Part shown: positions 1,878 to 64,000 of the stretch, piece after piece
How the letters are laid out: every line of letters begins with the position of its first letter
Numbering within the stretch: the stretch's first letter is position 1
NCBI GenBank assembly: GCA_030390025.1
Contig: CM059432.1
Span: 80,788,001-80,852,000, forward strand
Origin: Squalus acanthias
Taxonomy: Eukaryota
Direction: 5' to 3'
DNA length: 64,000 nucleotides
Notes under the pieces: model-generated
What the model was told of the DNA's origin: nothing
What the model saw: the letters and a program-made list of their open reading frames with translations, nothing else
Databases searched by the model: none
Program-made: the position numbers and the translations under genes

Positions 1878-4621
1878 GGCCGGTAAATTCAATAATGGCC
1901 GGTAAATTCAATAAGGCCCAAAAACGGGCGGGGGCCCTGCGAGGCGAGATTTGCTCGTGCCCATTTAGAAAGCGCAGGCAGCACGTTAATTTGGTGCTGC
2001 CTGCTAATTTAAATGATTTTAGTGCACAGCCCAGCGACTATCACGCTGCTTCAGCCTGTGCACCCAGCAGGAGGCCCAAGGTCGCGTCGCTGGAGCGACG
2101 CTGCATTTTCTTAAAGCGAGGCTGTCAGTTTTGAAAGCAACCTCTAACCCTTAAAGCTGAACTGCCTTCTGCACATAGAAAATGGTAAAAGTGCTTCAGC
2201 ACAAACACAAATGGCTCAACAGACCAGGGAAAGGACACCCAGGGTCTCGTACACAGCACTTGAGCTTTGTGCAAGGGGGTCAACACTGTAAGAAAGGTTC
2301 TCTATCCACAGGGGGACCAGGCGACCCTCCAGAAAGAAGGATGTAGGACCAGATCGCCGAGGCCGTCACTGCCAGCACTGTCGCCCCCAGGACCTGGCTC
2401 CAGTGCCCAAAGAAGCCTCATGACCTCTGACCAGTGGTCAAGGTCAGTGAATGCATCTTCAAAAGCCTTCTCCTACCAACTGCACCACCAGCCTCACACA
2501 CTGCTCAATGCACGACTCCCCCCGCCCCCCCCAATCACTCACCTACCAACAATCTCTACCAAACACGAGGCACACCTCATATTCCTAGCTTCACCTCACC
2601 CCCTTGGAGGAAACAGTGCTGGCCATTCTTGGCAGGGGCATGGCTGTAACCTTGGCCAGCGGCGGGACTGAACGAATGCAAGATGCCAGTATCCTCATAC
2701 ATTATCCTCCTTCTCACAATCTCTTCTGATGTACAAGCTGCACATAGTATAAGCATGCACCTCTTGCTTTCCCACCCTCCCCTCACCACAACCCTACCCG
2801 TAGGCCTTCCTCATTTCAGACACCCAAGAAATCCAGCCTGCCCAGCCAGTGGTTGACCAAGAGGAGAATGAAGAAGTAGAAGAAGAAACAACTCCATCAC
2901 TCGATTTCACACTCCCAGCCACCAGCTCCTCGAGTTCGTCCTGCAAGGCCATCTGCAGTGTCCCCCACTGAAAGTCAGCAGCCTTCCACCAGCCATGCTG
3001 CAGCTACTGGGTAAACACTGCGTAACATCAGTAGGATAGGCAGAGGCACACGCAAGACAGTCACTAAGGGAATGCACAAGGGTGACCAGTTCATTTTTTG
3101 ATGTAATCTTGGATGCAAATATGGATAAAGTTGGATTGGAAAGTTTGGTTAGTGGTGGCTTTTATTTCAGCATTGTGGCCAAGAGGACACTGTGATGGTC
3201 AGTAACAGAGGGAAGATAAGGTGTGGGAATAATGTTGAAAGGGGAATTGGGGTTGTGTTCACTGGCACCGCAGGCAGATGATTAGATCCCGATATCCCGG
3301 CCAGAAAGGGGCTGTCTGGGTTACCTCCTTCCTTCCACTTCCTCCTCTTCTGCTTTTTCCTCTTCTGCTTCTTCCTTTTCTGCTTCTTCCTCTTGGGGAG
3401 AAAGCGGGAATATGGTATTGAGATAGAGGATCAGCCATGATCATATTGAATGGCGGCGCAGGCTCGAAGGGCCGAATGGCCTACTCCAGCTCCTATTTTT
3501 CTATGTTTCTATGTTTCTTCCCTCTGCGAGCAGCTTGTCCCCTTTGCTGCCTCTGCTCCATCTCCATATCATGCTGCAGCCCAAGGGGGACTGCAATAAG
3601 AGCCCCCAGAACTGGAAGCAAGTGGTGTTCTCAGAGGCCTTGATTTAACATCCAAAGCCTTGCAAGCGTCCAGTAGTCCTACCTGCACACTTGAACAATT
3701 TTTATATGTATTGCACCAAGCCACTACTCCAATAAAATGTAAAAAAAAAGCTGAAATCGAAACTTACCTGAAAGATGTGTGTGTCCCTTTAAGAAGCGCC
3801 GACAGCATCTCTTTAGTACTGCTGCATGCATGTTCTTCCATGCGTGGTTAGGAGGGGGTGGTATGCAGAGCAGCGATATCCAAAATCGCATTCATGCATC
3901 AATTAAGGCGTTGCATGCCAATTGTGAAGATGCATTCACTGACCTTGACCACTGGTATGAGGTCATGAAACTTATTTTGGCATAGAAGCCAGGTCCTGGG
4001 GGGTGACACTGCTGGCAGTGACGGCCTCGGTGATCTGGTCCCACATCGTTCTTTCTGGAGGGCCTCCTGGCCTCTTTGGGTAGAGGACTTCTCTTGCCGT
4101 GTTGACCCCTTGCACAAAGCTCAAGTGCAGCGTGCGAGACCCTGGGTCCCCTTTCCATGGCTTGTTGAGCCATTTGTGTTAGTGCTGAAGCACTTTTATC
4201 ATTTTTTCATGTTGAGAAGGCAGTTCAGCTTTAAGAGCTGAAGACTGCCATTTTGTAATTTTTTTTTTCAGAAGGTAGTTGAGCTCTTAGGGCTAAAGAG
4301 TGGCTATTTTTAAATGATTTTTATTTTTTTCATTTTAGAATGTAGCTCCCCTTTTAGTGCTCGAGACTGCTTTCTAAAATGACAGGCTAGCTTTAAGACA
4401 ACACTGCCTTGCTTCAGGGACGCTACAGTCACGATACATTGGGCCTCCTGCTGAGCGTTCCGCCCAAAACAGCACATTGCACGGTAGGTTCTGCACTCCG
4501 ATCATTTAAATCAGCTGGCCGCACCGAAATAACAGTGCGGCCTGCGCTCTTTTTACAGGCGAGAGTTAACCTCGCCCATGGTGGTGCCGCCCATTTTCCC
4601 GCGCTGTCGGATGTCTAGGCC
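1878..4621. mobile_element. Composite non-autonomous Harbinger derivative with degenerate Myb-gene remnants in both orientations
   Basis: Termini GGCCGGTAAATT...GATGTCTAGGCC. 2150-3920 parallels 22930-24560, and 3925-4621 parallels 56700-57407. A short CR1 3'-tail fragment lies at ~3420-3515. Confidence 0.7.
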
Positions 4622-12687: not shown

Positions 12688-12731
12688 ATTAAATTTCAGA
12701 GGATTAACACCTCTTTAAAAAAAACTCCAAA

Positions 12732-15000
12732 GGGGGCAAAATTCATTACCACCCAGGAATGGCGCTAACTTCTGAAAAGTTTGAGATTTAACGCCAGGTG
12801 CGAATGAATCTCGCTGCACGCAAAATTCAGTGTCACCGCTCAAGGAAAGGATGGGAGCGCTAAATCAAGCGCTAATGACCTAGCTCAGTGGTGTTAGACT
12901 CAAAGCGCTAAGCAATTTCAGGTGCAGTCTAATCGCTAGTCATCATTGCCACAGGCTCTTTCCAGTTCTAGGGGAGGTTCAATCATGCTGCAGAACCTCA
13001 TTCTCAGCATTGCTGGTTCTGCATCTGTCTCTAAAAGCAGCAGAAGGCCAAGGAGAAGGAACCGGACCACTGAAGGAGGTGTCATTATGGCAGATCAACC
13101 ACCCAGGGAGAGAGCTGGCAGATTCTGCGACCAAGCATTGGAGGCATTGGTCTTCGCTGTGGGGAGACGGGGGGCGGTGCTGTACCCGGCAAGTGGCAGG
13201 AGGCCCTCGCCGCAAGTCTTTCGTGCCATGTGCAGGGAGGTAGCCCAGCAGGTGTCGGGTAGCACTGTGTTCCCCAGGACCTACACACAGTGCAGGAAGA
13301 AATTTAACGACCTCACTCTGGTGGTCAGGGTGAGTCAATGCTTCAACAAATGCTACATACCACTGTGTGAACCTCAGTCTGCACACACTGCCCAAAGCAC
13401 CACACCCCAGCACTCACCCACCAACAATCTCCACCTACCAACACTCACACCCAGATCTCACACCTTGCACACAATGACAGCTATTCAACTATGGCAGGCA
13501 CATCTCCCAAACATATTGCTCCACACTCACTCACACACTTTCCTCTCTCTTGCAGGCCAAGGTCGCTCACAACTGGAGGGAGCAGGAGCCCACAGGTGGG
13601 GGACAAGCTGACACCCAACCACTGTCTGAGCTGGAGACTCGAGTGCTGCACATTATTGGGCACCAGGTGGTGGGCGCCGTGGCCACCGGCGACGTTGACC
13701 CCCATGGGGACAACAACGGTATGTTCATCCCTACTCCTTCTTCTCACATCCCACTTCCCCCTCACCCCACAAGCGTTTCGCACTTTCCAGCTAATCATGC
13801 TGTATGCATGCCTTTCTCCCTTCCTGACCCCTCCCCTCACCTTAACCCAAATCTTGTGCATTTATGCTTTCAGATAATGAGCAAGCACCTGAGCAGCCTG
13901 TCCCTGAGGGCACTGTAGAGAGCGAGGCAGGAGAAGAGGAGGAGGAAGAACACACCGCGTCACTGCATGTCTCACCCGCAGGCACCAGCTCAGATACTGG
14001 CTTTCGAGGCTAGCATAGTAGCGGGATCTGCACAGGGTGATGCACCGGGGACGAGTGGGCTGCAGCAAGGCCAGGGGGGAAAGGGTAGCTCGGGAGTCAG
14101 CTCCCCGGAGGGCGAGTTCGTGTGCGAGTTCTGCTGCACAGGACTCAGATGAGAACCTTGATGGGGAGGCCTTTAGAAGAAGGGTGATGGGCATGCACAC
14201 GGAGATGATAGGTGCAATGGCAAGGATGCTGGAGAGCCTCTCGGCAATGGTAAGGAGCGTGGAGGAGTCCGCCTCCAACATTGCACAAAGCTCTACGCAC
14301 ACCGTGGAGCCCATCATTTCCAGTTTGGAAAGGATGGTAGACTCCCAGAGAGACCGTGGCGACCCAGACCAGATGCTGCGTGTGATGGGCGATGTCGCAG
14401 CTTCCATTGCAGCACAGGCGGAAGCCACGCAACATCTTAGTGCTGTAATGCAGTCTATGCTTGGTGTCATCGATTCTCAGATTGCTCTCATGCAGTTTCA
14501 ACTTGATGGCCACGCAAGCTCTAACTGCTGCCATCATGGCTGGGTCGACAACCGTCCACCGGGGCTTTTACGGTGTCACAGCAGGCCAGCAATCTGTGCT
14601 GCAACAGATTGCTAGGGATGCTGAGGTGCTGCCCTGGGGAGTGTCAGTGGAGCAGGAAGCTGCTGTCCTCTCTCAGGATGACAGCACTCCTGCTCCCACC
14701 ATTGGCACTCCGCCGTTGCTCTTCTCGCTGCCTGTCATCCAGCCAGCCCAGACTGCTGCCGCCCATGCTGAGGTGGTGCAGTCTACAGCCGGGCCTTCCA
14801 GGCCCAGGGCTGGTCGAGGGTGTCCTGCAAGTCCATCTGAAGTCTCCCGCACGGACACTCAGCAGCCTTCCACCCGCCGTGCTGCAGCCACTGGGCCAAC
14901 ACGTCATAAGAGCACTAGAGTAGGCAAAGGCACAGTAACGAGGGGCGCTAAGGGATTGCACAAGGGTCAATAACTAATATTGTTGTTGTAAATATGTGTT
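12732..15000 (+). mobile_element. Truncated Harbinger element retaining one end and the Myb/SANT gene
   Basis: Starts with GGGGGCAAAATT and has GCGCTAA subterminal motifs. No second TIR or transposase was found. Confidence 0.75.
13087..14973 (+). pseudogene. Harbinger Myb/SANT-like gene copy, 3 exons (13087-13329, 13556-13718, 13874-14973), exon 3 frameshifted
   Basis: MADQPPRERAGRFCDQALEALV...RTYTQCRKKFNDL. Exon 2 is 163 nt, the same length as in the 62-kb copy. Exon 3 homology passes through three frames. Confidence 0.8.
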
Positions 15001-17432: not shown

Positions 17433-19538
17433 GGGCTAGAAATTGGGTACCTTAGTACCTCCGGGGGAAGCAAATGACTTTTCGCCCAGGCGCAGCGCCA
17501 CGAACGACTCCCGGTAAATTCAGCGGGAGTTTAGCGGCAGTGGTAACTGGTAGCGCCCCGCGCCGCTGCGCAGGCGATGACAACATCATCACCGTGCGCA
17601 GCGCCTCGTTTTCGCCCCGCCTGCAAAATTGGCCCACGCCCCCTGAATCTGCGCCGGGCGATGACAGCGACCGATTTAGGGGATGGGAACGGAGCGGCAG
17701 GAGGCTTGCGGGGCACTAAGTAAAGGGGAGGTGGCGGGCGGGGAAAAATAAAATCGGCTGACTTACTTGTTGCGGCTCGTTGCGTCTTTGAACGCGGAGT
17801 CCGTGCCGCGACCTGGCAGTCCGGCACTCCTCTTGAGTGCTGGGCTGCTGGCATGGCACCCCGCTCCCCAGTGGTCCAGGTAGGACCCTGTAAGAACATA
17901 AGAACATAAGAAATAGGAGCAGGAGTAGGCCAATCGGCCCCTCGAGCCTGCTCCGCCATTCAATAAGATCATGGCTGATCTGATCCTAACCGCCAATCTA
18001 CTATCACAGAACCATCTCCTGAATCTAACAGAATTGGACACACGAAATAGGAGCAGGATCAGGCTACACGGCCCCTGGGCCTGCTCCACTACCTACAGGG
18101 CCATGACCGATCCGAACCTAGACTCATGTCCAAATTCCTGCCCGCTCCCCGTAACCCTTAATTCCCTTTACTTCTAGGAAACTGTCTATTTCTGTTTTAA
18201 ATTTATGTAATGATGTAGCTTCTACAGCTTTTTGGGGCAGCATATTCCATGGACCTACCACCCTCTGAGTGAAGTAGTTCCTCCTCATCTCAGTTTTGAA
18301 AGAGCAGCCCCTTATTCTAAGACTATGCCCCCTAGTTCTAGTTTCACCCATCATCGGGAACATCCTCCCCGCATCCACCCGATCCAACCCCTTCACAATC
18401 TTATATGTTTCAATAAGATCGCCTCTTATTCTTCTGAACTCCAATGAGCAGAGTCCCAATCTACCCAACGTCTCCTCATATGTCCATCCCCTCATCCCCA
18501 GGATTAACCGAGTGAACCTTTTTTGCACTGCCTCGAGAGCAAGGATGTCTTTCCTTAAGTAGGGACACCAAAACTGTATGTAGTATTCCAGGTGCGGTCT
18601 CACCAATACCTTGTACAACTGAAGCAATACCTCCCTATTTTTATATTCTATCCCCCTAGCAATGAAAGCCAACATTCCATTTGCCTTCTTAATCACTTGC
18701 TGCACCTGCATACTAACCTTTTGAGTTTCGTGCACCAGGACCCCCAGATCCCTTTGCACTTCAGTACTCTCCAGTTTCTTGCCATTAAGATAATAAATTG
18801 CTCTAGGATTTTTCCTGCCAAAGTGCATCACCTCACACTTTCCAGTGTTGTATTCCATCTGCCAAATCTCTGCCCACTTACTTAGCCTGTCTATGTCCCC
18901 TTGCAGGTTTTTTATGTCCTCCTCACTCACTACTTTCCCTCCCATCTTAGTATCATCTGCAAATTTTGATATGTTACACTTGGTCCCTTCCTCCAAATCG
19001 TTAATATAGATTGTAAAGAGTTGGGGACCCAGCACTGACCCCTGTGGAACACCACTAGTTACTGATTGCCAGTCTGAGAATGAACCATTTATCCCAACTC
19101 TTTGCTTTCTGTTAGATAGCCAATCCTCTATCCATGCCAGAATATTACCCCCAATCCCGTGATTTTTTACCTTAAGCAAGCAATAATCTTTTGTGTGGCA
19201 CCTTGTCAAATGCCTTTTGGAAATCTAAATACACTACGTCCACTGGTTCCCCTTTATCCACTCTATATGTTACTTCCTCAAAGTTGTGGGCTTGGGCCCT
19301 CCCCTTTAATGAGGGGAAGAGCCCTTCCACGCGGCAGCGCTACGTGGCCCAGTGCGTAGCACTGCAGAACGCACCATCCCGATATTCGGGGTTAGCGCTC
19401 TAAGAAAGAAGTGGAGCACTTGAATTCGCGCGCCACCTCCCTCTTGGGGCGCTAAAACTGAATTTCGCGGTCGCCAGCGCTAATTAGCGCCCAGGCGATG
19501 TTAGCGCCCCAAAATGGTCGATACTGAATTTTTCCCCC
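17433..19538. mobile_element. Harbinger-type MITE split by a CR1 insertion
   Basis: Ends GGGCTAGAAATT...AATTTTTCCCCC. The interior is similar to the MITEs at 35079 and 50105. Confidence 0.75.
17891..19281 (-). mobile_element. CR1 LINE, 5'-truncated (RT C-terminal half and 3' UTR)
   Basis: ORF with GVPQGSVLGP...YINDL...KFADDTK...RDLGV...VRPHLEY and a (TTCTTATG)n tail. Confidence 0.92.
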
Positions 19539-21545: not shown

Positions 21546-24500
21546 GGCCTAGAAATTGGATAACGCGGAAACAAAAGGACGCTGGTGCCGCGCTGCAAGA
21601 TATGCCCGTGCTCGTTCAAGGTCCGCCAGCAGCACATCAACTTTGTGGTGCCTGTTGATTATAATGAACGCGCTGCTGACAGGCTGTGCGCTCAGCAGGA
21701 GGCTGAAGTTCGCGTTGCTCGAGCAAGGCTGACTTTACTTAAATAACAACAGAAAACGCTGGAAAAACTCAGCAGGCCAGGCAACATCCGTGGAGAGAGA
21801 AACAGAGTTAACGTTTCAGGTCGAAAACCCTTTGTCAGAACTGAGAAAAAAGCAGGAAATGAAACAGATAAAAAAGCAAGTGGGAGGCTGGGGGGAGGAA
21901 TAAAAGAACAAAAGGGGAGGTCTGTGATAAGTAGAGACATTAAGAGATGCTCAAGGCGAGACGAGATGCTAATAGGACAGGTTAAGAAACAAAAGATGGC
22001 TCAGAAGTGTGAAGTGTGAAATGCTGGCAGAATGAAAGACAGCTGCAGTGGGGGAGAGAGAGAAAAAAAAAGGATAAAGGCACAAACCAAAAGGGTGGAT
22101 AAAATGTATATATATGGTAGGGGCCGAGGTTATGATCTGAAATGGTTGAACTCGATATTGAGTCTGGAAGGCTGTAAAATGCCTAATCGGAAGATGAGGT
22201 GCTGTTCCTCGAGCTTACGCTGAACTTCCGTGGAACAATGCAAGAGGCCGAGGACGGTGAGGTGGTCATCCAATCTGCATTTGGTCTCCCCAGTGTAGAG
22301 GAGACCACATCGTGAGCAGCGAATACAGTATACTAGATTGCAAGAAGTACAAGTAAATCGTTGTTTCACCTGGAAGGGGTGTTTGGGGCCCTGGAGAGTG
22401 GGAAGGGGGGATGTATAAGAGCAGGTGTTGCATCTCCTGCGCTTGCACGGGAAGGTGCCGGGCGAGGGGGAAGGGGTGCTGGGGGTGATAGAGGAGTGGA
22501 CTAGGGCGTCTCGGAGGGAGCAGTCCCTGCGGAATGCTGAAAGGAGAGGTGAGAGGAAGATACGTTTGGTGGTGGGATCACGTTGGAGGTGGCGGAAATG
22601 GCGGAGGATGATCCGTTGAATGTGGAGGCTGGTGGGGTGAAAGGTGAGGACAAGGGGAACTCTATTGTGGTTCCGGGAGGGAGGGGCCGGGGTGAGGGAG
22701 ATAGAACGGACACGGTCGAGGGCCGTGTCGACCACGGTAGAGGGCAATCCTCGGTTCAGGAAAAAGGAAGACATGTCGGAAGCACTGGTATGGAAGGTGG
22801 CATCATCGGAGCAGATGCGGCGGAGACGGAGAAACTGGGAGAAGGGAATAGAGTCCTTACAGGAGGCTTTACTTAAAACTAGCCTGTGCCTCTTTAAAGC
22901 AGTCTGCACCTCTTAAAGGCAGTCTGCACCTCTTAAAGGTGAGCTGCCTTCTGCAGATGAAAAATGGTTATAAGTACTAACCAAAATGGCTCAATAGTCA
23001 TGGGAAAGGGCACCCAGGTTCTCATACGCAGCACTCCAGCTTTGTGCAGGGGGTCAACACCGGAAGAGAGGTCCTCTACCCACAGGGGCCCAGGAGGCCC
23101 TCCAGAAAGAAGGATATGGAACCAGATCGCCGAGGCCATCACTGCCAGCAGTGTCGCCCCCGCAGGACCTAGCTCCAGTGTCCAAAGAATTTTCATGACC
23201 TCAGACGAGTGGTCAAGGTCAGTGAATGCATCTTCAAAAAACATCTCCTACCAACTGCACCACTAGCCTCACACACTGCTCAATGCATGACACCCCCCAC
23301 CTCCATCCATTACCTATCAACAATCGCTACCAAACACAAGGCACACCTCACATTTCTAGCTTCACCTCACTCCCTTGGAGGAGACGGTGATGGCCATCCT
23401 TGGCAGGGGCATGGCTGAGCCCTTGGCCAGCGGCGGGGCTGAAAGAATCCAAGATGCTGGTATCCTAATACATTATCCTCCTTCTCACATCCCACTTCCC
23501 CCTCATCCCACAATCTCTTCTGATTTACAAGCTGCACATGGTGTAAGCATGCACCTCATGCTTTACCCCACCTCCCCTCACCACAACCCTATCCATGTGC
23601 CTTCCTCACTTCAGACACCCAAGAAATCCAGCCTGCCCAGCGAATGGTTGACCAAGAAGAGGGAGAGGAGAGTGAAGAAGAAGAAACACTGTCACTCGAT
23701 TTCTCACTCCCAGCCACCAGCTCCTCGAGGTTGTCCTGCAAGGCCATCTGCAGTGTCCCCCACTGAAAGTCAGCAATCTTTCACCAGCCATGCTGCAGCC
23801 ACTGGGGTAGCACTGCATAAGAGCACTAGGATATGCAAAGGCACACGCAAGACACTCACTAAGGGAATGCACACAAAGGTGATTAGTTGATTTTTTGATG
23901 TAATATTGGATGCATATATGGATAAAATTGGATTGGCTTTTATTTCAGCATTTTGGCCAAGAGGACACTGTGATGGTCAGTAACAGAGGGAAGGTAAGGT
24001 GTGGGACTAATGTTGAAAGGGGAATTGGGGTTGTGTTCACTGGTACCGCAGGCGGATGATTCGATCCCGGGCAGAAATGGGCTGTCTAGGTTGCTTCCTT
24101 CCTTCCGCTTCGGCTTTTTCCTCTTCTGCTTCTTCTTCATCCTCCTCCTCTTCCTCCTCCACCTCCCGCTGTGAGCAGCTTGTCCCCTTTGCTGCCTCTG
24201 CTCCATCTCCATGTCATGCTGCAGCCCAAGGGGGACTGCAACTAGAGCCCCTAGGACTGGGTTGCAGAGGCCTTCCTTTAAGAACCAAAGCCTTGCAAAT
24301 GTTCAGCAGCACTCCCTGCACTCCCTTCACACTTTAACAACTTTTTAAATGCATTACACCAAGCCACTACTCCAATAAAATGTAAAGAAACCAGCAAAAA
24401 TCTAAACTTACCTGAAAGTTGTGTGTGTCCCTTTAAGCGCTGATAGGAGGTCCATCATACTGCTGCATGCACGTTCTGCCGTGCGTGCTTTGGAGAGGGT

Positions 24501-35078: not shown

Positions 35079-35806
35079 GGGGGAAAAATTCAGTGGCGCC
35101 TCCTTTGGGGTGCTAATGTCGCCTGGTCGCTAATTTTAGCGCCCCGAAAAAGTTAGCGCCCCTGCGCCGTAAATTCAGTGGCAATGCCCCAAGCAGGAGG
35201 CAGGGCGCTACTGGAAGTGCTCCCCCTCCTTCTCGGGGCGCTACCAGTGAATTTCGCGGCGCTACGCGCATCGGCACATAGCACCACGTAATTGCAGGCC
35301 TCTCACCCCTGATTAAAGGGGAGGGGCCTAGCGCTGCACGCACCGGGGCCCTGCTGGACCACCGGGGAGCAGGGTGCTGGGAAAACAGCCCGGCACTCAA
35401 AAGGAGTGCCGGCTGAGCGATCGTGGCCGGCACCCCAAAGAAAAAAGGGGAAGGGGGCAGGTGCAGGCAGTCAGCCAAAAAAAAATGGCTGCCCGACACC
35501 TGCTCTTTAAGTAGCGCCGCGGCGGCTGCAAAAACGCTAGCCTGACCCTGTCGGACATATAGTCCGGCGATAGGTCAGGGGGCACAACCCAAGTTTGTGG
35601 CCGGGGCGTGAGCAGGATGCTGCGCACAGCGATGACGTCATCGCCAGTGGCACAGCACCGCGGGGCGCTACCGGCTGCTGCTAACCTCCCGCTGAATTTC
35701 GCGGGAGGAGTTAGCGGCGCCGCACCTGGACGTTAGGGACTTTGCACCCCATTAGCGCCCCCTGGGGGTGCTAACAGGAGGCGCAAAGCAACCCAATTTT
35801 TCCCCC
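35079..35806. mobile_element. Harbinger-type MITE
   Basis: Perfect TIRs GGGGGAAAAATT/AATTTTTCCCCC, TSD TAG and many TTAGCGC/GCGCTA motifs. Confidence 0.88.
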
Positions 35807-37171: not shown

Positions 37172-39035
37172 GGGGAAAAAATTCAGTTGGTTAGCGCCTC
37201 CGGGGGCGCTAATGACTTTTGCCCGTGCAGAACGATTTTAGAGCCACCCGCAAAATTCAACTGGCGGTTTGCGGTGGTGCTAAACACTACCGCCACGATC
37301 TCCTGCGCCCGGAGATCGTGACGCCATCCAAGCGCGTAGTGCCCCGGACTGGAAATTGATTCTCGCCCACTGCCTCAGCGCCTGCCGCTAGGAACGACAG
37401 TAGAAGAGGACGGCTTGCAGTCAGCTGGGAGCTGGGGGAGCGCTATATAAAGACGAGTACTTCCTGTTTTTTTCTGTCGGCATTCAATTTTGCCTTCGCA
37501 CGTTGACCGAAGCAGAGAGGCGTTTGGAGAGATTTGACGGTTTCCTACTTGAAGGAGTTTTGCTCGTCAGGAAAACTTATCAGGTTGCATTTCTTTTACC
37601 ATTGGTACTGCAACATTTACAAGAGTTAATGTGGGCTGCACTGGCACGGGGCCTCGCCCTCCAGCTTCACAGTCGGAGGCAGCGGAGGCGGAGAGAGAGA
37701 GTAGCAAACATGGTCAGAGGGAGGAGGGCCAACAGGGCTCTCCACAGGAGACCTTACCCTCCCAGGGTATTCCGGGAGCAGTTCTCATACATTCATCTCT
37801 CAGAGGAGCAGTGCCTTAGAAGGCTCCGCTTCAGCAAGGAGATGGTCACAGAGCTCTGCCACCTCCTGCAGCCAGAGCTCCAGCCTCAGCTCAGGACCAG
37901 GACGTCTCTGTCGGTGGCAGTGAAGGTCACAGTCGCTCTCAATTTCTACGCCAGCGGCTCCTTCCAGGCTTCAACAGGGGATATTGCCAACATCTCCCAG
38001 TTTGCTGTCCATTGCTGCATCTGGGAGGTCACAGATGCTCTGTACAGAAGGAGAAGGAAGTACATCTCATTCCCCATGACACGAGACAAACAGCATGAAC
38101 CGCGCATGTGGCCTCGCAAGGATAGCGGGCTTCCCTATGGTTCAGGGCGCCATTGACTGCATCCCCGTGGCATTGCGGGCACTTCATCAAAATGCAGAGG
38201 TGTTCCGCAACCGCAAAGGCTACCACTCTCTGAACGTGCAGTTGGTGTGCGACCACAGACAGCACATCATCGTCGTCAATGCCCGCAATCCTGGCAGCAG
38301 CCATGATTCATTCATTCTACGCCACTGCTCCACCCACCGCATCAACCTGGTGGCTGGCTCCTCGGGGACAAGGGTTATCCACTCGCCACCTGGCTGATGA
38401 CACTGCTCCGCAACCCCAACAATCCTGCTGAGCTCTCATACAATGCGAGCCATAACGCCACCAGGAACCTGATTGAACACACCATCGGCATGCTAAAGCA
38501 ACGGTTCTGCTCTCTTGACCACTCTGGAGGAGCCCTGCAGTATTCCCCTGATGGAGTATCTGTTTTCATTGTTGTGTGCTGCATGCTGCACAACCTCGCC
38601 ATTCTGAGGGCCCAGCATTGCCACCAGGGATTGGTGGACCACCTCAGGAGGAGGAAGAGGAGGAGGAGGAGAAGGATAAGAGGAGGAGGAGCAGCACCAA
38701 CGTAGGAGGGAGCCGCTCAATGTTGCTTCTGCAGGGGCCGTTCGTGAATGCCTCATTACACAGCGCTTACAATAAATGAGATAGCACATGGCATTTGGGA
38801 TCAACAACCACATCATTACAGCCAGCTCGCAGGCCCTATGACCGGCCAAAGTTCCAATGAAAAACATGACCAAATTCGTAACGTTGAAATAAGCATTTAT
38901 TATTCTGCACAACTCTGTCTTATTAAACACAACCAATAACAAACACAGCAATTTATGAACAAACAGAACTGGGCGCTAAAGTTTGTGTCCAGCCGATGTT
39001 AGCGCCCAAAATGGTCGATACCGAATTTTTCCCCC
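37172..39035 (+). mobile_element. Harbinger deletion derivative carrying only the transposase
   Basis: TIRs GGGGAAAAAATT...AATTTTTCCCCC with TSD ATT. It holds a transposase homologous to 59422-60573 and no Myb gene. Confidence 0.88.
37629..38774 (+). pseudogene. Frameshifted Harbinger transposase
   Basis: Fragments in three ORFs: YPPRVFREQFSY...KVTVALNFYASGSFQ; GAIDC...NRKGYHSLNVQLVCD...[25 protein letters not shown]...CCMLHN. Confidence 0.88.
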
Positions 39036-56389: not shown

Positions 56390-57407
56390 TGCCAAAGCAA
56401 GAGCTACATGCTTATACCATGCACACCTAGTCAATCAGAAGATATTGTGGGATGTGAGAAGGAGGATAAAATATGAGAATACCAGCATCTTGTATCCTTT
56501 CAGCCCCGCCGCTGGCCAAGGGCTCAGTCATGCCCCTGCCAAGAATGGCCTACACCGTCTCCTCCAAGGGGTGAGGTGAGGCTAGGATTGTGAGGTGTGC
56601 TTCGTGTTTGGTACAGATTGTTGGTAGGTGAGTGGTGGGGGGCGCGGTCGTGCATTGAGCAGTGTGTGAGGCTAGTGGTGCAGTTGGTAGGAGACGGCTT
56701 TTGAAGATGCATTCACTGACCTAGACCACTGGTCTGAGGTCATGAAACTTCTTTGGGCGCTGGAGCCAGGTGGTGGGGGCGACACTGCTGGCAGCGATGG
56801 CCTCGGTGATCTGGTCCCACATCATTCTTTCTGGAGGGCCTCCTGGCCCCAGTGGGTAGAGGACCTCACTTGTAGTGTTGACTCCCTGCACAAAGATGGA
56901 ACGCTGCATGTGAGACCCGGGGTACCCCTTCCCTGGCTTGTTGAGCCATTTGTGTTAGTGCTGAAGCACTTTTACCATTTGCTTACATGCGGCAGGCAGT
57001 TCAACTTTAAGAGCTGAAGACTGCCATTTCGGAATTATTTTTAATGTTTATTTTATTTCAGAAGGCAGTTGAGCTCTAAGGGCTAAAGACTGCCGATTTT
57101 TAAATGATTTTAATTTTTTTCATTTTAGAATGCAGTACCCCTTTAAGGGATCGACACTGCATTCTAAAATGACAGGCTAGCTTTAAGACAACGCTGCTTG
57201 GCTCCAGAGACGCTACGGCCACGCTACATTGGGCCTCCTGCTGAGACTACCGCCTGAAACAGCGCTTACATGGTAAGTTTTGCACTGTGCTCATTTAAAT
57301 CAGCAGGCAGCACCAAAGTGCTGCCTGCGCTCTTTTTGTGGGCGGTCATTAACTTCGGCTCGTGGTTGCACCGGCCGTTTCCCGGCTTAATCAGATTTCT
57401 TGGCCAA
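56390..57407 (-). mobile_element. Truncated non-autonomous Harbinger derivative (Myb-side end)
   Basis: Reverse-complement match to 2150-2760 and direct match to 3925-4621. Remnant PTTWLQRPKKFHDL; ends GATTTCTTGGCC. Confidence 0.72.
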
Positions 57408-59421
57408 AATCTTTATCCTTGTTCTTCAAATTCCTCCTTGGTCTCACTCCACCTATAGGCTTAATTTTCTTCCTGCATCCTTTGGTCTTTCACCTATAGC
57501 CTCCCTTCCCCCTTCCTTTACCACACTATTAGTGGCAGAGCTTTCAGCCACCTAGATGCTGCTCTTTGAAACTCCTGTCCAAACACCTCTGGCTCTCTAC
57601 TTTTCCCCCTTCCTTTAAAAATCTTCTCAAACCCATTTTTTCACTCAAGCCTTCAGTTATTCCTCCAAAACTCACTCCCCTGGGCCAACATTTATTTCCT
57701 CTTGCTACTACTCTGTACAGGACCTTGGGATATTTTGCATGTTAAAGGCACTATAAAAACACAAGTTATATTGTCAGCATTTTCATAGGAAAATAACTGC
57801 ACCTCTAGGGAGGTCCGGGGGCTCACTTTCTATAAATTATAAAGAAGTAAACAATAAGATATGTATTTTTCTAAATTTCATGTGAAAGTTATCTTGGATA
57901 AAATCTTTTTTGAAGATCATCCTGGTATTTGTGGTTAACTATTCATTTCAAAAAGGCTTGAAATCAGAGCTCCACAGACCAGGTACTCCATGATTGCACA
58001 ACATATCACTTGAATTCATGATAGAACTCACGAGTTACAAGACTTTCGTAAATGCAGCCCATTGTTCGATTACAGTTTTGCCAGCCAATCTTTGATTCCA
58101 ATTTACCCAGGCCAGATCCGTTCTCAACCCACTGAAATTGACCCTCCTCCAATTAAGTATTTTAGCTCTAGATTGCTCCTTGTCCTTCTCCATAGCTAAT
58201 CTAAACCTTATGATACTATGATCACTGTTCCCTAGATGTTTCCCTACTGACACTTGCTCCACTTGACCCACCTCATTCCCCAGAACCAGATCCAGCAATG
58301 CCTCCTTCCTCGTTGCACCAGAAACGTACTGATCAAGAAAGTTCTCTTAAACATACTTCAGAAATTCTTCCCCCTCTCTGCCCTTTACACTATTACTATC
58401 CCAGTCTATATTAGGATAGTTGAAGTCTCCCATTATCACTACTCTATAGTTCTTGCACCACTCTGTAATTTCCCTGCAAATTTGCTCCTCTATATCCTTC
58501 CCACCAGTTGGTGTCCTATAGAATAGACCTCCTTCTCTTTTCTTCTTAGGCAGTCCCTCGGAACCGAGGATGACTTGCTTCCACATTAAAAATGAGTTCT
58601 CAGGTGACTGATGAGTCCAATGCGGGACCTACAGTCTCTGTCACAGGTGGGCAGACGGCGGTTGAAGGAGCAGGTGGGTGGGGTGTTTGGGTTGACGTGC
58701 GCTCCTTGCGCTGCCTGCGCTTGGCTTCCGCTTGTTCCCGGCGAAGAGACTCGAGGTGTTCGGCGCCTCTATATTGTTTCGTAACTCTAACCAAATAGTT
58801 TCTGTCCTTGACCCCCCCCAGGACATCCTCTCTCTCCAGCACTGTAATATTCTCCTTAATCAATACTGCCACCTCCTTTCTTTCCTTCCCTATCTTTCCT
58901 GAACACCTTGGGGGAAAAATTCACTTGGTTGCGCCTCCCGTTAGCGCCTTAAGAGGGCGCTAATGGGGCGTTAAGCCGCTAACGCCCGGGCGCAGCGCTG
59001 TTTGCGCCGCTCGAGAACTTAACTTGAGATTGTGCGGCGGCGCTAAAACTTACCGCTGCGACCACCTGCGCGTGCAGATTGTGACATCATTCCATGGTGC
59101 AACGCCCTTGGGGCGCCCCGGAGCGGAAATTGAGTGGCGCCCCCTGCCTTACCGCCTGGCGCTTCCAACGACCGGAAGACTGAACGTTATCAATCGGTGT
59201 GGGGCCGGGGGGGGACGCTATTTAAAGGGGGCCTCTTCCTGTCTTTTTCTGTGGTCGACATTTATGCACCACTCGTTCTGAGAGAGAGAGAGAGATTCGG
59301 AGAGAGAGAGAGAGAGACTTCTACATTGACTCGACGCTTTGTGAGGTAGTTTGGCCTAGTTCATCCTAACTTTGTTGCTACTTTAGTTGCTGTACCTCAT
59401 TACTTTTCTGGCAAAGAGAAT

Positions 59422-60573
59422 ATGGGGGCTGCAATGATTGGGGGCGTCGTCCTGCTCCAGCTGAATCGGAGGATAGTGAGACGCAGACAGAGAGTGGCAA
59501 TGATGGCCAGACGGAGGAGGGCCATCAGGCGCATGTACAGGAGAGCTTACCCTCCCAGGGTATATCGTGAACAGCTCTCCTACATCCATATGTCCGAGGA
59601 GCTGTGTTTGCGAAGGCTGCGATTCAGCAAGGAGGTGGTCACTGAGCTCTGCCACCTGCTGCAGCCAGATCTGCAGCCTCAGCTGAGGTCCAGGACGTCT
59701 CTGTCGGTGGCAGTGAAGGTCACAGTGGCTTTGAACTTCTACGCCACTGGCTCATTCCAAGCTGCTGTTGGGGACCTCGCCAATATCTCCCAGTTTGCGG
59801 TGCATCGCTGCATCCGGCAGGTCACCAATGCCCTCTTCAGAAGGAGACGAGACTTCATCTCTTTCCCTATGACCCCAGACAAGCAGCGTGACCGTGCTCT
59901 GGGCTTTGCGAGGGTAGCGGGCTTCCCCATGGTGCAGGGCGCCATTGACTGCACGCATGTGGCTTTGCGTGCTCCGCGAGAGAATGCAGAGGAATTCAGG
60001 AACAGGAAGGGGTTCCATTCCTTGAATGTGCAGTTGGTCTGTGACCACAGACAGGTGATACTCGCTGTCAATGCCCACTATCCGGGCAGCTGCCACGATG
60101 CTTTCATCCTGCACCAGACTACTGTGGCAGAAGTTTTCGAGGCACCGCATCAGTCAGTTGGTTGGCTTCTGGGGGACAAGGGGTACGCATTGAGCACCTG
60201 GCTGATGACACCGCTCCGTACGCCAAACACCCCTGCTGAGCTGCGGTACAATGAAGGCCATCAAGCAACCAGGAACATTATTGAGCACACAATCGGCGTG
60301 CTGAAACAACGGTTCCGCTGTCTGGACCATTCCGGAGGAGCCCTGCAGTACTCGCCTGAGCAAGTTTCGAACTTCGTAGTCGTGTGCTGCATGTTGCACA
60401 ACATGGCAATCCTCAGGACCCAGCCAATGCCACCAGGCCTTGTAGCACCACCAGAGGAGGAGGAGGAAGAGGACGAGGACGATGATCATCAGCAGCACCA
60501 AGGCAGGAGGGCGGCCCACAATGGTCAAACTGCAAGGGCCGTCCGTCAACGACTAATAGCAAGCCGCTTCTAG
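59422..60573 (+). CDS. Harbinger (HARBI1-like) DDE transposase, 383 aa, uninterrupted
   Basis: Motifs GAIDCTHV, NRKGFHSLNVQLVCD, PGSCHDAFIL, LLGDKGY and RNIIEHTIGVLKQRF, plus an N-terminal HTH-like segment and an acidic tail. Confidence 0.93.
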   Translation: MGAAMIGGVVLLQLNRRIVRRRQRVAMMARRRRAIRRMYRRAYPPRVYREQLSYIHMSEELCLRRLRFSKEVVTELCHLLQPDLQPQLRSRTSLSVAVKVTVALNFYATGSFQAAVGDLANISQFAVHRCIRQVTNALFRRRRDFISFPMTPDKQRDRALGFARVAGFPMVQGAIDCTHVALRAPRENAEEFRNRKGFHSLNVQLVCDHRQVILAVNAHYPGSCHDAFILHQTTVAEVFEAPHQSVGWLLGDKGYALSTWLMTPLRTPNTPAELRYNEGHQATRNIIEHTIGVLKQRFRCLDHSGGALQYSPEQVSNFVVVCCMLHNMAILRTQPMPPGLVAPPEEEEEEDEDDDHQQHQGRRAAHNGQTARAVRQRLIASRF

Positions 60574-60867
60574 GGCCCCTGCCATTGCTACAAACACTAA
60601 TCAACCCAGCACGCAACCCCTAAGCCGGCCAAGGCACCAATAATTCCAACCACCAGCCATGTATATTTTGAATACAGAAACTTATTTATTTTACAAACTC
60701 TGTGTGTGTCAATTCCTCATGACAAACTCATAGAAATAAACACAAAAAAACAGTCAATAACATAACTGGTTCTCACAACCTGGAGATAATGTCCAAAACA
60801 CTAAACAAAAGTTGGATCATGAACCTCGGCCTTTAATAAAAAAATGACCAGCATTTTGGCACACCTC

Positions 60868-62745
60868 CTACTTTTTGCCCTTCGAGGGTGATCTCCTTCC
60901 CTTGCGCACTTCCCCCCTTCTAACCCTACTGCTCCTCCGTAATGGGACCTCAGTGGCTGCAGCAAGGCTGGTGGAAGGCTGCTGCTCGTCAGACCCTGAC
61001 ACTGCAGATGCCCCTGAAGGACGGCCTCGACCACTTCTGGGCCTGGAGGGCCCGGCTGCAGACTGCACCAACTCTGCATGGGCGGCAGCAGTCTGTCCTA
61101 CAGGCGGTGGCAAGTGCAGTGGAGAAGTGACAGTGTTGGCAGCAGGAATGCTGTCATCGTGAGAGAGGACAGCAACTCCCTGCTCGCCCGACACACTGGC
61201 ACTCCCACGGGGCAGCACTTCAGCATCCGGAGCAATTTGCCGGAGAACAGATTGCTGGCCTGCTGCGGCGCGGTGACAGCCCCGGGGACATGTGCACGAA
61301 CCATCGAGGATGGCAGCAGTCAGTGCTCGCGTGGCCTCAATCTGAGTCTGCATGAGAGCAGTCTCAGATGGGTTCCTGGCAGCCAGTGACTGAATTGCAG
61401 CACTAAGCTTTAGTGTGGCATCCGCCTGTGCTACAGCGAAGTGCTCCACACTCCTTGCCAGTGATTCAATGCATTCGGGCACCCTTCCCACTGCACCCAT
61501 GAGCTCAGTGTGCATGCCCACCGCCTGGCTGTTCATTTCTGCAATCAGCCGCTCCTCCTCTGCGTCCATTGCAGTAGGAGTGTCTGGCATACTCTCCCTC
61601 TGGGGAGAAGGACCCCGTTCTTCCCTACCCCCCCCCATGGCGTTGCTGCAGCCCGCTGGGTCCTGGAGCTTCACCATCATCAGCCCCTTCCCCCCTGCTC
61701 CCCTCCGGGGAAGGCGTGTTCCCAGTGTGGGCATGGGCTTCCTCGGGAGAGGGTGGCACTGATGCTCCGGCTTCCTCTTCCTCCTCAGCTACAGCATCAC
61801 TCCCAGTGGCAGCTTCAGGGCCCGTCTCCTCAGCTGGTGAATCACCATCTGAAAGCAGGGAGGTACAAGAGTGGCTTTAGCGTGAGGACAGGGTGGCAGT
61901 AAGGGAGGAATAAGTGCAGCGAGTTAGCAAGTTGGATTGAAAGTGTCAAAGGCTGGTATTGTGAGGGACAAGTGGAAGGACAGAGGACAAAAAGGTGATG
62001 ACCTTACCATTGCTGTCCACAACGGGGTCGGCGTCTCCAGTGGCGACGGGACCGATCACCCGGCTTGCCACAATCCTGTGGACGCGCTCCTCCAGATCGC
62101 TGAGGGGTTGCAGCTGAAGCCGCCCTCCACCCGTCCGTTGCTGCTGTCTCCGATTATGAGCCAGCTTAGCCTGCAAGAAAAAGGACAGCATCTGAGTAAA
62201 TATACAGCCATGGTCTTGCCTGATGTGCCTCCCATAGGTGAATAGCCCTTACTGTATGCAGCCATGGTCTTGCCTGATGTGCCTCCCATAGGTGAATAGC
62301 CCTTACTGTATGCAGCCATGGTCTTGCCTGATGTGCCTCCCATAGGTGAATAGCCCTTACTGTATGCAAAGTGTGGAATGTGTGTGTGTGTTTGATGAAA
62401 GGGCCATAGGTGTTGGATGAGTGTTGTGCATTGGGGTTTTAAGACCCTCTGGCCATAGAGTGAGGTTGAGATGGAGGGATGGAGAGGTATTGAGAAAAAG
62501 CCACTCACCCTGACGACCCGAGTGAGGTCGTTGAACTTTTTGCGGCATTGAACATGGGTCCTGGGCACCATGCTCCTGGAGGAGACGCTCTGAGCCACCT
62601 CCCTCCACACTCTTCTGAACTCGCGTGGCAAAGGCCTCCTGCCACTCTCAGGGAACAGCATGCATCGTCTGCGCTCCACTGCGCCAACCAGAGCATCCAA
62701 GGCCCGCTCGGTGAAGCGATGAGCGCGTTCTCTCACCCTCTCCAT
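60868..62745 (-). CDS. Harbinger Myb/SANT-like DNA-binding partner gene, 3 exons (62745-62509, 62170-62008, 61848-60868); one +1 frameshift in a G9 run
   Basis: Exon 1 is MERVRERAHRFTERALDALV...W.EVA...RTHVQCRKKFNDL (Myb/SANT-like). Exon 2 is AKLAHNRRQQQRTGGG...LSDLEERV. Splice sites are canonical GT-AG and phases are consistent (0, 1). Confidence 0.82.
62205..62368. repeat. Perfect 54-bp tandem repeat x3 in intron 1 of the Myb-like gene
   Basis: The unit cagccatggtcttgcctgatgtgcctcccataggtgaatagcccttactgtatg starts at 62205, 62259 and 62313. Confidence 0.95.
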
Positions 62746-64000
62746 GCTTGGCAGCAAAATGGATTACAGGTCTCTCCAGGCTGAGATTCAAGGCTGCAAT
62801 GAGCAGGGTGTGGCTGGGGAGCAAGTGGCCCCCCCCGCTTTAAGAAGTGTCCGGCGCCATTGTGTCTGTGTTCCCTCGCTAACTGGCAGCAGCTGCGCTC
62901 GTGCGCTGAGTTAGCGCCTCACTCCTTGGCCTTTGCGCCTTAAGAGAGGTGTGCAGCGCCTAATTTAGCGCTCCACTCACCTCCCGGGTCGGTAAAAGTG
63001 AAGTTTCCTGTCAGTGCCGATAATTAGCGCCAGGCGCTAATATTTGCGTCCGGACGATATTTGCGCCCCAAATGGGGCGCGACCTAATTTCTACCCCCTT
63101 ATATCCAGGAATATTTAGTACCCAGTCATGCCCTTTTTTGAGCCATGTCTCCGTTATCACCATGACATCATATTCCCTTGTAGCTATTTGCGCCTACAGC
63201 TCACCAACCTTATTTACCACGCTTCGTGTGTTTACACACATGCACTGTAAACCTATCTCAGACCTTGTATTCTCTCTTAGTCTGACCCCACCTAATACCG
63301 TACTATTACTTTAGTGCTATCTGTCTCTCCCAATTCTTTGTGCACCTTGTTTCTCCTTTCTAGTGCTACATCCTGGTGCCCATCCCCCTGCCAAATTAGT
63401 TTAAACCCTCCCCAACAGTACTAGCAAACCCCCCACCCCGGCAAGGACATTGGTCCCAGCTCTGTTGAGGTGCACCCCGTCCGGCCTGTACAGGTCCCAC
63501 CTCCCCCAGAACTGGTCCCAATGTCCCAGGAATCTAAAACGCTCCCTCCTGCATCTTCTCTCCAGCCACGCATTCATTTGCTCTATCCTCCTATTTCTAT
63601 ACTCACCAGCTCGTGGCACTGGGAGTAATCCGGAGAATACTACCTTTGAGGTCCTGCTTTTTAATCTCTTTCCTAGCTCCCTAAAATCTGTCTGCAGGAC
63701 CTCATCCCTCTTTCTACCTACGTCGTTGATACCGATATGGAGCACGACCTTTGTCTGTTCACCCTCCCCCCATAGAATGTTCTGCAGCCGCTCAGTGACA
63801 CCCTTGACCCTGGCACCAGGGAGGCAACATACCATCCTGGAATCACGTCTGCGACCGCAGATGCACCGGACTGTTCCCCTAATTATTGAATCCCCTATCA
63901 CTATTGCTTTCCCGATCTTCCTCCTCCCCTCCTGTACAGCTGAGCCACCTGTGGTGCCGTGGACTTGGCTCTGGCTGTACTCCCCAGAGGAACCACCGCC

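Follow-up and report, generated by a model that had tools for sequence, protein, structure and literature searches.

The stretch of Squalus acanthias DNA considered here (the window, 64 kb) raises the question of what lies at 58910-63097 and whether it can still move. A sequence-only reading described it as a near-intact, young and possibly recently active two-gene Harbinger transposon with an extra last exon in its Myb-like gene. The locus is very probably a PIF/Harbinger copy flanked by CTT, inserted in a LINE, with an open transposase gene and a frameshifted last exon in the Myb gene, working by the mechanism proposed below.

In zebrafish Harbinger3_DR and in rice elements, the Myb domain is described as binding subterminal motifs, while the C-terminal part of the same protein binds the N-terminus of the transposase, and both proteins reach the nucleus (PMC9710019, PMC9392472, PMC7282668). 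Transposition of these elements is reported to require both proteins, which interact (PMC9710019, PMC7282668). Nuclease-binding C-terminal parts have been described for Ping Myb, HDP2, NAIF1, ALP2 and the zebrafish Harbinger Myb (PMC7282668). The transposition mechanism of the superfamily has been described as not thoroughly characterised (PMC9710019). A 2022 survey listed the elephant shark without Harbinger and called for checks in other cartilaginous fish, and Harbinger expression is known in fish (PMC9179366). A later listing of PIF-Harbinger includes the whale shark (PMC8455134).

Element boundaries and target site

The features of the locus are collected in Table 1. The element has CTT on either flank and splits the coding region of a LINE, which we take to be CR1 from its translated frame, recognised without a library match. 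Excising the element together with one CTT gives an uninterrupted CR1 reading frame again. The reconstructed empty site aligns without gaps to a second CR1 copy at ~31.4-31.7 kb, whereas retaining both CTT requires a 3-nt gap against that copy. The 3-bp target site duplication (TSD) typical of PIF/Harbinger is thus confirmed as CTT. A contig joint that skips 4191 nt (4188+3) at the element is found in 4/4 sequencing runs. Since these joints could come from paralogous LINE copies, they confirm the target duplication and not a polymorphism.

The terminal inverted repeats (TIRs) are 12 bp long and 10/12 identical, a match with a chance of 7.5e-5 among random 12-mers of the window, and the similarity fades further in (12/20, 14/30). 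They are shorter than those of the superfamily at large, which are usually given as 25-50 bp (PMC9179366). The insertion site agrees with the Harbinger3_DR 15-bp target consensus at 9/15 positions (PMC3016246 for the consensus) and with the motif A-N-N-Y/TSD/R-N-N-T. The TSDs of two further bounded elements in the window are TAG and ATT; one of these elements fits this motif on both sides and the other on the left side only.

The window contains 28 copies of TTAGCGC where 3.4 would be expected, and the seven in this element all lie within 190 bp of its ends. By analogy with the zebrafish and rice elements, TTAGCGC is the probable motif bound by the Myb partner.

Table 1. Coordinates of the element, its genes and its host within the window
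Feature	Position	Strand	Remarks
CR1-type LINE (presumed), host, coding region split by element	58800..63250	-	
Left TSD CTT	58907..58909	.	
Left TIR, 12 bp, imperfect	58910..58921	+	matches right end 10/12
Three TTAGCGC motifs, subterminal left	58941..59046	.	likely Myb-protein binding sites
DDE transposase gene, 383 aa, open	59422..60573	+	D176, D226, D252, R284, E288 all there
AT-rich spacer with poly(A)-like hexamers, both strands	60574..60867	.	candidate signals
Exon 3: acidic linker, predicted coiled coil, disordered basic tail	60868..61848	-	
Basic low-complexity tail	60871..61050	-	probable part in nuclear localisation or DNA contact
Predicted helical region, residues 17-109 of post-frameshift frame	61294..61572	-	indels in heptad steps among relatives
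Frameshift site of this copy	61628..61637	-	4 nt longer than main family contigs; premature stop after it
Intron 2, GT..AG, 159 nt	61849..62007	-	removed in two putative RNA runs
Exon 2, TGGG motif	62008..62170	-	
Intron 1, GT..AG, 338 nt	62171..62508	-	54-bp unit x 3.1 copies at 62201-62368
Exon 1, Myb/SANT-like (trihelix) domain, 79 aa	62509..62745	-	PF13873 E 3.1e-9
Four TTAGCGC motifs, subterminal right	62911..63040	.	
Right TIR	63086..63097	-	
Right TSD CTT	63098..63100	.	

Transposase gene

The uninterrupted 383-aa transposase described earlier is upheld. The frame is stop-free, matches PF13359 (E 2.8e-38) and carries the D, D and E of a DDE_Tnp_4 transposase of the PIF/Harbinger type (D176, D252, E288). 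It departs from the strong consensus of its relatives at only 1/119 conserved columns. Among the best 120 of 369 relatives, most are elasmobranch proteins called 'putative nuclease HARBI1', with identity of at most 66%, and in a quick tree the window transposase falls inside a 25-row clade with support 99. A PDB sequence search with the transposase matched no solved structure. In the spacer downstream, AATAAA is present at 60735 and 60835 on the plus strand and AATAAA/ATTAAA at 60685 and 60832 on the minus strand, so the hexamers proposed as poly(A) candidates on both strands are there.

Myb-partner gene and its frameshift

The second gene is separate, carries a Myb/SANT-like domain and is convergent with the transposase gene; its three exons, canonical splice sites and TGGG motif are as first read. 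Together with the TSD and the empty site, the PF13359 and PF13873 matches bear out the Harbinger identity and two-gene anatomy. Multi-exon Harbinger partners are known from C. inopinata (preprint 10.64898/2026.05.26.728016), and solo-gene Harbinger derivatives, comparable to the window's own, from sea kraits (PMC8437027).

Exon 3 had been taken for an open frame of ~325 aa. In this copy it is not, as the spliced Myb coding sequence (1381 nt) stops at codon 208. The break sits within a run of nine C. Dropping four bases leaves 458 codons open and dropping one base leaves 459. The 4 nt at 61628 are missing from the entire covering depth of runs X17, X19 and X10 and from ~17% of the covering depth of run X1. 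The absence of these 4 nt from the family contigs means that the family frame is open and that the break is confined to this copy, where it arose by mutation or possibly through an error of the assembly. The family contigs have an open exon-3 frame, and no listed contig spans the whole element. An autonomous copy has both reading frames intact, and by this measure the copy fails at codon 208 of its Myb frame. The description 'near-intact' therefore holds for the transposase gene and not for the Myb gene.

Splicing was followed through contig joints. The joint across intron 2 (62008/61848) is present in X17 (depth 264, short side 18 letters) and X19 (depth 627, short side 32 letters) and is absent from both DNA runs, X1 and X10; that X17-X20, X17 and X19 among them, are RNA runs is a guess. 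The other junction put forward for checking, 62509/62170 across intron 1, is not among the 15 joints listed of 82, and one X17 contig reads through the intron-1 donor unspliced. In neither copy does the intron-1 frame contain a stop (shuffle P 0.04 and 0.08). A read-through protein was left as a weak candidate, as the intron lengths of the two copies differ modulo 3 and the copies would thus have no peptide in common. An antisense ORF overlapping exon 3 was rejected because it has stops in both copies. The introns, too, align at ~70%.

Both genes could instead be domesticated host genes, a pair of the HARBI1/NAIF1 kind. Database relatives are labelled HARBI1-like and the family has putative transcripts, as would be expected of such a pair, but the TIRs, the TSD, the insertion in a LINE, the many diverged copies in reads and the frameshift make this extremely improbable. 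Domesticated HARBI1/NAIF1-type genes are single copy, fixed and free of TIR and TSD, and the empty-site reconstruction refutes them at this locus.

Divergence and age

In the deepest listed contigs, run X10 differs from this copy at 20/1978 letters (1.0%), X17 at 21/1483 (1.4%, three shallow diverged contigs omitted) and X19 at 45/1000 (4.5%). Run X1 additionally holds many pieces diverged by 5-15%. Among 40 differences listed, with a further 327 unlisted, nine set this copy apart from nearly all of the depth in each of the four runs, which gives a floor of 0.2%; five of the nine are coding, and three of these alter the amino acid. Half or more of the family's words are present in 18/24 listed runs, under six organism labels. 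With a shark mutation rate given as 7e-10 per base per generation (PMC10587355), even 0.2% divergence would take millions of generations to build up, unless methylation makes such repeats mutate faster, as it may. The family is low in divergence, yet low divergence under slow shark mutation falls short of demonstrating recent activity. Of the earlier 'young, possibly recently active', the low divergence is real, and current activity does not follow from it, given the six organism labels and the low mutation rate.

It could still be argued that the family is active now and that the frameshift is a homopolymer error of the assembly. The position of the break in a run of C, the open frame obtained by omitting a single base, the near-consensus transposase and the apparent splicing of family transcripts all fit this explanation. 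The contigs, however, differ from the copy by 4 nt and not by 1, the nearly fixed differences include nonsynonymous ones at three of the five coding sites, and the family's words are spread over runs of six organism labels. Present activity with an assembly error is accordingly judged quite unlikely, and a broken copy of a low-divergence family is preferred.

Exon 3 and its predicted coiled coil

Exon 3 was at first called extra. Myb-like partners of ~300-400 aa are described as typical (PMC9710019), and the rice Ping/Pong ORF1 protein, in Ping 465 aa against 458 aa in the shark, binds the nuclease through its C-terminal residues 292-465 (PMC7282668). Because Ping's Myb protein binds the transposase through this C-terminal part, exon 3 is not extra but probably the C-terminal part that such partners usually have.

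AlphaFold2 predicts helices at residues 17-109 of the post-frameshift frame of exon 3 (block pLDDT 64-96; pTM 0.32, 10 sequences) and disorder beyond ~residue 130, with tail pLDDT mostly <50. A HMMER search with exon 3 over 1.84 billion representatives gave 10 matches, nine of which are shark models; P0127, a bacterial repeat protein, was discarded as a chance match. The sawshark proteins P0121 and P0129 have the identical layout of Myb domain, TGGG, acidic segment, helix and tail. A profile search with exon 3 returned three proteins, all among those already found, and a word-indexed search against longer proteins gave no match. None of Pfam, PDB and Foldseek names the exon-3 helix. Foldseek with the exon-3 model found nothing at E <=0.001, the PDB sequence search gave one weak match to a lectin neck (E 0.007), and the ESM Atlas, searched with the helix, gave just unnamed clusters below 0.9 and generic helices. 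The two blocks said to be shared with a copy at 14 kb were both confirmed in a relic at 13-15 kb.

The best evidence on the helix comes from its length. In 8/8 elasmobranch proteins the anchor-to-anchor distance is 36, 43, 57 or 64 aa, in every case 1 mod 7; the HMMER matches P0126, P0127 and P0130 were omitted because the segment is missing or the protein unrelated. In the 13-15 kb relic the anchors are 172 nt apart, which is 57 codons plus one frameshifting base. Gaps in the exon-3 tail are of 2-5 aa and show no heptads. Four anchor lengths require at least three events, for which chance would be ~0.003 (an estimate, (1/7)^3). The region thus combines a long predicted helix with a heptad register kept through indels, as in a coiled coil. 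The heptad steps support reading the exon-3 helix as a coiled coil under protein-level selection, and oligomerisation is its likely role.

Other observations argue against strong protein constraint on the helix. Measured on one pair, against the 13-15 kb relic, a decayed partner, its dN/dS is 1.07 (CI 0.60-1.98, 77 codons). On the same single pair the tail gives 0.56 (0.39-0.83), exon 1 0.17 and exon 2 0.26. The window family lacks 45 residues upstream in the helical region, which is not a multiple of 7, and the helix is missing altogether from the relics at 2-4 kb and 23 kb. The oligomerisation domain suggested earlier for exon 3 is thus borne out in part, by the heptad-step lengths and the predicted helix, and weakened by the helix dN/dS. 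A dN/dS near 1 across families, proposed earlier as grounds for rejection, is seen on the single pair in the helix and not in the tail.

A different possibility is that most of exon 3 is a linker under relaxed constraint and that its similarity between families comes from constraint on DNA or RNA or from exchange, and not from protein function. Four-fold sites are identical at 58/81 positions in helix and tail against 17/43 in the 5' exons (p 0.0009; four related sequences), and tail identity is flat across codon positions (0.65-0.81), whereas exon 1 and the transposase dip at third positions. The helix dN/dS of about 1 points the same way. The four-fold contrast is not significant without CpG-prone sites (13/21 vs 4/8) and its four sequences are not independent, the RNA-structure signal in exon 3 is absent (z -0.8) as is any Rfam match, and the heptad-step indels and the open frame of the family contigs speak for a protein. 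The linker explanation is held to be unlikely; the pattern itself could reflect DNA/RNA-level constraint, inter-family exchange or CpG effects.

The helix might also be mainly an arm that binds the transposase, a hetero-interface and not a self-oligomerising coil. In the five Harbinger pairs named above the nuclease is described as bound by the C-terminal part of the partner, and the ALP2 binding fragment 171-261 contains a predicted coiled coil at 235-261 (PMC7282668). Length change by whole heptads, by contrast, better suits a long coil that keeps register than a fixed interface. The helix is also shorter in the window family and missing from two relic families, and exon 2 is under more constraint and could itself bind. 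A predicted complex of transposase and exon 3, run without alignments, scored 0.01 and favours neither view. The binding arm is a possible explanation, though a doubtful one.

Relation to known systems and proposed mechanism

Like the shark element, Harbinger3_DR has two genes (DDE transposase and Myb-like), a 3-bp TSD and a repeated subterminal motif (PMC9710019, PMC9392472, PMC7282668, PMC3016246). Its TSD is CWG and not CTT, and its subterminal motif probably differs; the likeness is one of description. The likeness to rice Ping/Pong is likewise descriptive, across to a plant lineage, and the Ping passages of PMC7282668 mention no coiled coil. Elasmobranch RefSeq/UniRef models ('putative nuclease HARBI1', 'MYPOP-like', 'uncharacterized protein'; P0001, P0002, P0121, P0129) share the Myb-partner layout, with exon-3 identity of 32-51% beside the transposase identity given above. 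They are annotated as host genes and not as transposon families, and against them the window family is missing 45 aa of the helix. The domesticated NAIF1/HARBI1, MSANTD1-4 and ALP2/ALP1 belong to the same two protein classes. In its features a NAIF1 cluster resembles P0129 (score 0.87), which is no more than a lead. MSANTD1, 3 and 4 have three exons like the shark Myb gene (PMC9392472), and a coiled coil is predicted at the C-terminus of ALP2 (PMC7282668), as it is in exon 3. Unlike the shark element, these are fixed single-copy genes without TIR or TSD.

By analogy with Harbinger3_DR and Ping, the exon-1 Myb domain would bind the repeated TTAGCGC near both ends, and the C-terminal part of the Myb protein would recruit the transposase and carry it into the nucleus, where the transposase would cut and paste the element. 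The exon-3 coiled coil may join several Myb subunits, which could then occupy the 3-4 motifs of either end and assist in pairing the two ends, and the basic tail may direct the protein to the nucleus. To move, this copy would have to be given Myb protein in trans.

A bolder proposal is that elasmobranch Myb partners carry a tunable coiled-coil stalk, gaining and losing heptads, that oligomerises the DNA-binding subunit across motifs and pairs the ends, in a shark family that is still active, perhaps with a cis-acting DNA or RNA element in the 3' half of exon 3. This combination is tentative and rather improbable.

The literature search turned up no paper that treats the structure of a shark Harbinger family or heptad variation among the Myb proteins of Harbinger elements; Kapitonov and Jurka 2004, Sinzelle 2008 and Repbase Reports, outside the search, may describe both. 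With all tested PIF/Harbinger features present, the shark element is best classed from its sequence as a probable new Harbinger family of a known kind and not as a new system. What appears new is the heptad-stepped exon-3 helix, a modest addition to the known model.

The shark copy is a well-resolved elasmobranch Harbinger with a defined gene structure and support from splicing. The heptad evidence singles out, within the Myb partner, a sub-domain that is concrete and testable, and it leaves the known model unchanged. If the bolder proposal were true, the active shark family would offer structural studies and tool development a two-component transposon from a vertebrate.

Related Harbinger elements in the window

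The two-gene Harbinger transposon, termed here the main element, pairs a DDE transposase with a convergent three-exon Myb-partner gene. Several related sequences accompany it in the window.

Table. Harbinger-related features in the window
Feature	Position	Size or identity	Character
Harbinger with transposase only	37172-39035	1864 bp	ATT duplication
Non-coding element	35079-35806	728 bp	Terminal repeat same as that of main element; TAG duplication
Decayed relic, Myb gene only	12730-14975		Three exons as in the Myb gene of main element
Older relic family	2150-3394; 22915-24152; 56394-57410		Myb exon 1 and intron remnants retained
Tripled repeat inside intron 1 of main element	62201-62368	54-bp unit, 98-100% identity	

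The transposase-only element is frameshifted and is 75% identical to the main element's transposase gene (59422-60573). Additional element ends, bearing clusters of the subterminal motif TTAGCGC, lie at 19538 and 47137. In X17 and X19, sequencing runs guessed to be RNA, read depth is far greater at element ends, as would be expected if many short derivatives exist.

The Myb-only relic carries several frameshifts and a longer exon-3 helix than the main element, and no transposase was found near it. The older relics retain the final 55 codons of exon 3 and lack the helix.

Conservation and possible read-through of the Myb-partner gene

Toward its 3' end (60871-61566, compared with 14139-14970 in the Myb-only relic), exon 3 has synonymous sites that are more conserved between families than those of exons 1 and 2. 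Between-family conservation of the introns also exceeds that of exon 1-2 synonymous sites.

Read-through of intron 1 keeps a stop-free frame at 62056-62763 (minus strand) that encodes 235 aa, comprising the Myb domain and an intron peptide. This frame is likewise stop-free in the Myb-only relic, and an unspliced X17 contig spans the intron-1 donor. Read-through might conceivably yield a Myb-only product. The 54-bp unit is single in the relic, whereas the main element's intron 1 holds three.

Relatives in other elasmobranchs

Two gene models matched by the exon-3 protein search join host and Harbinger sequence. In sawshark P0123, a RING/B-box/PML coiled-coil host protein is followed by Harbinger Myb exons 2-3; in Heptranchias P0128, an exon-3 piece precedes an Ig-domain host protein. 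These fusions could reflect either exon capture or an annotation artefact.

In the quick tree of transposase relatives (alignment A3), HARBI1-like proteins form five short-branch groups, each common to shark and ray orders, with 69-90% identity. Most have altered catalytic residues. The five groups are candidate elasmobranch-specific domesticated transposases.
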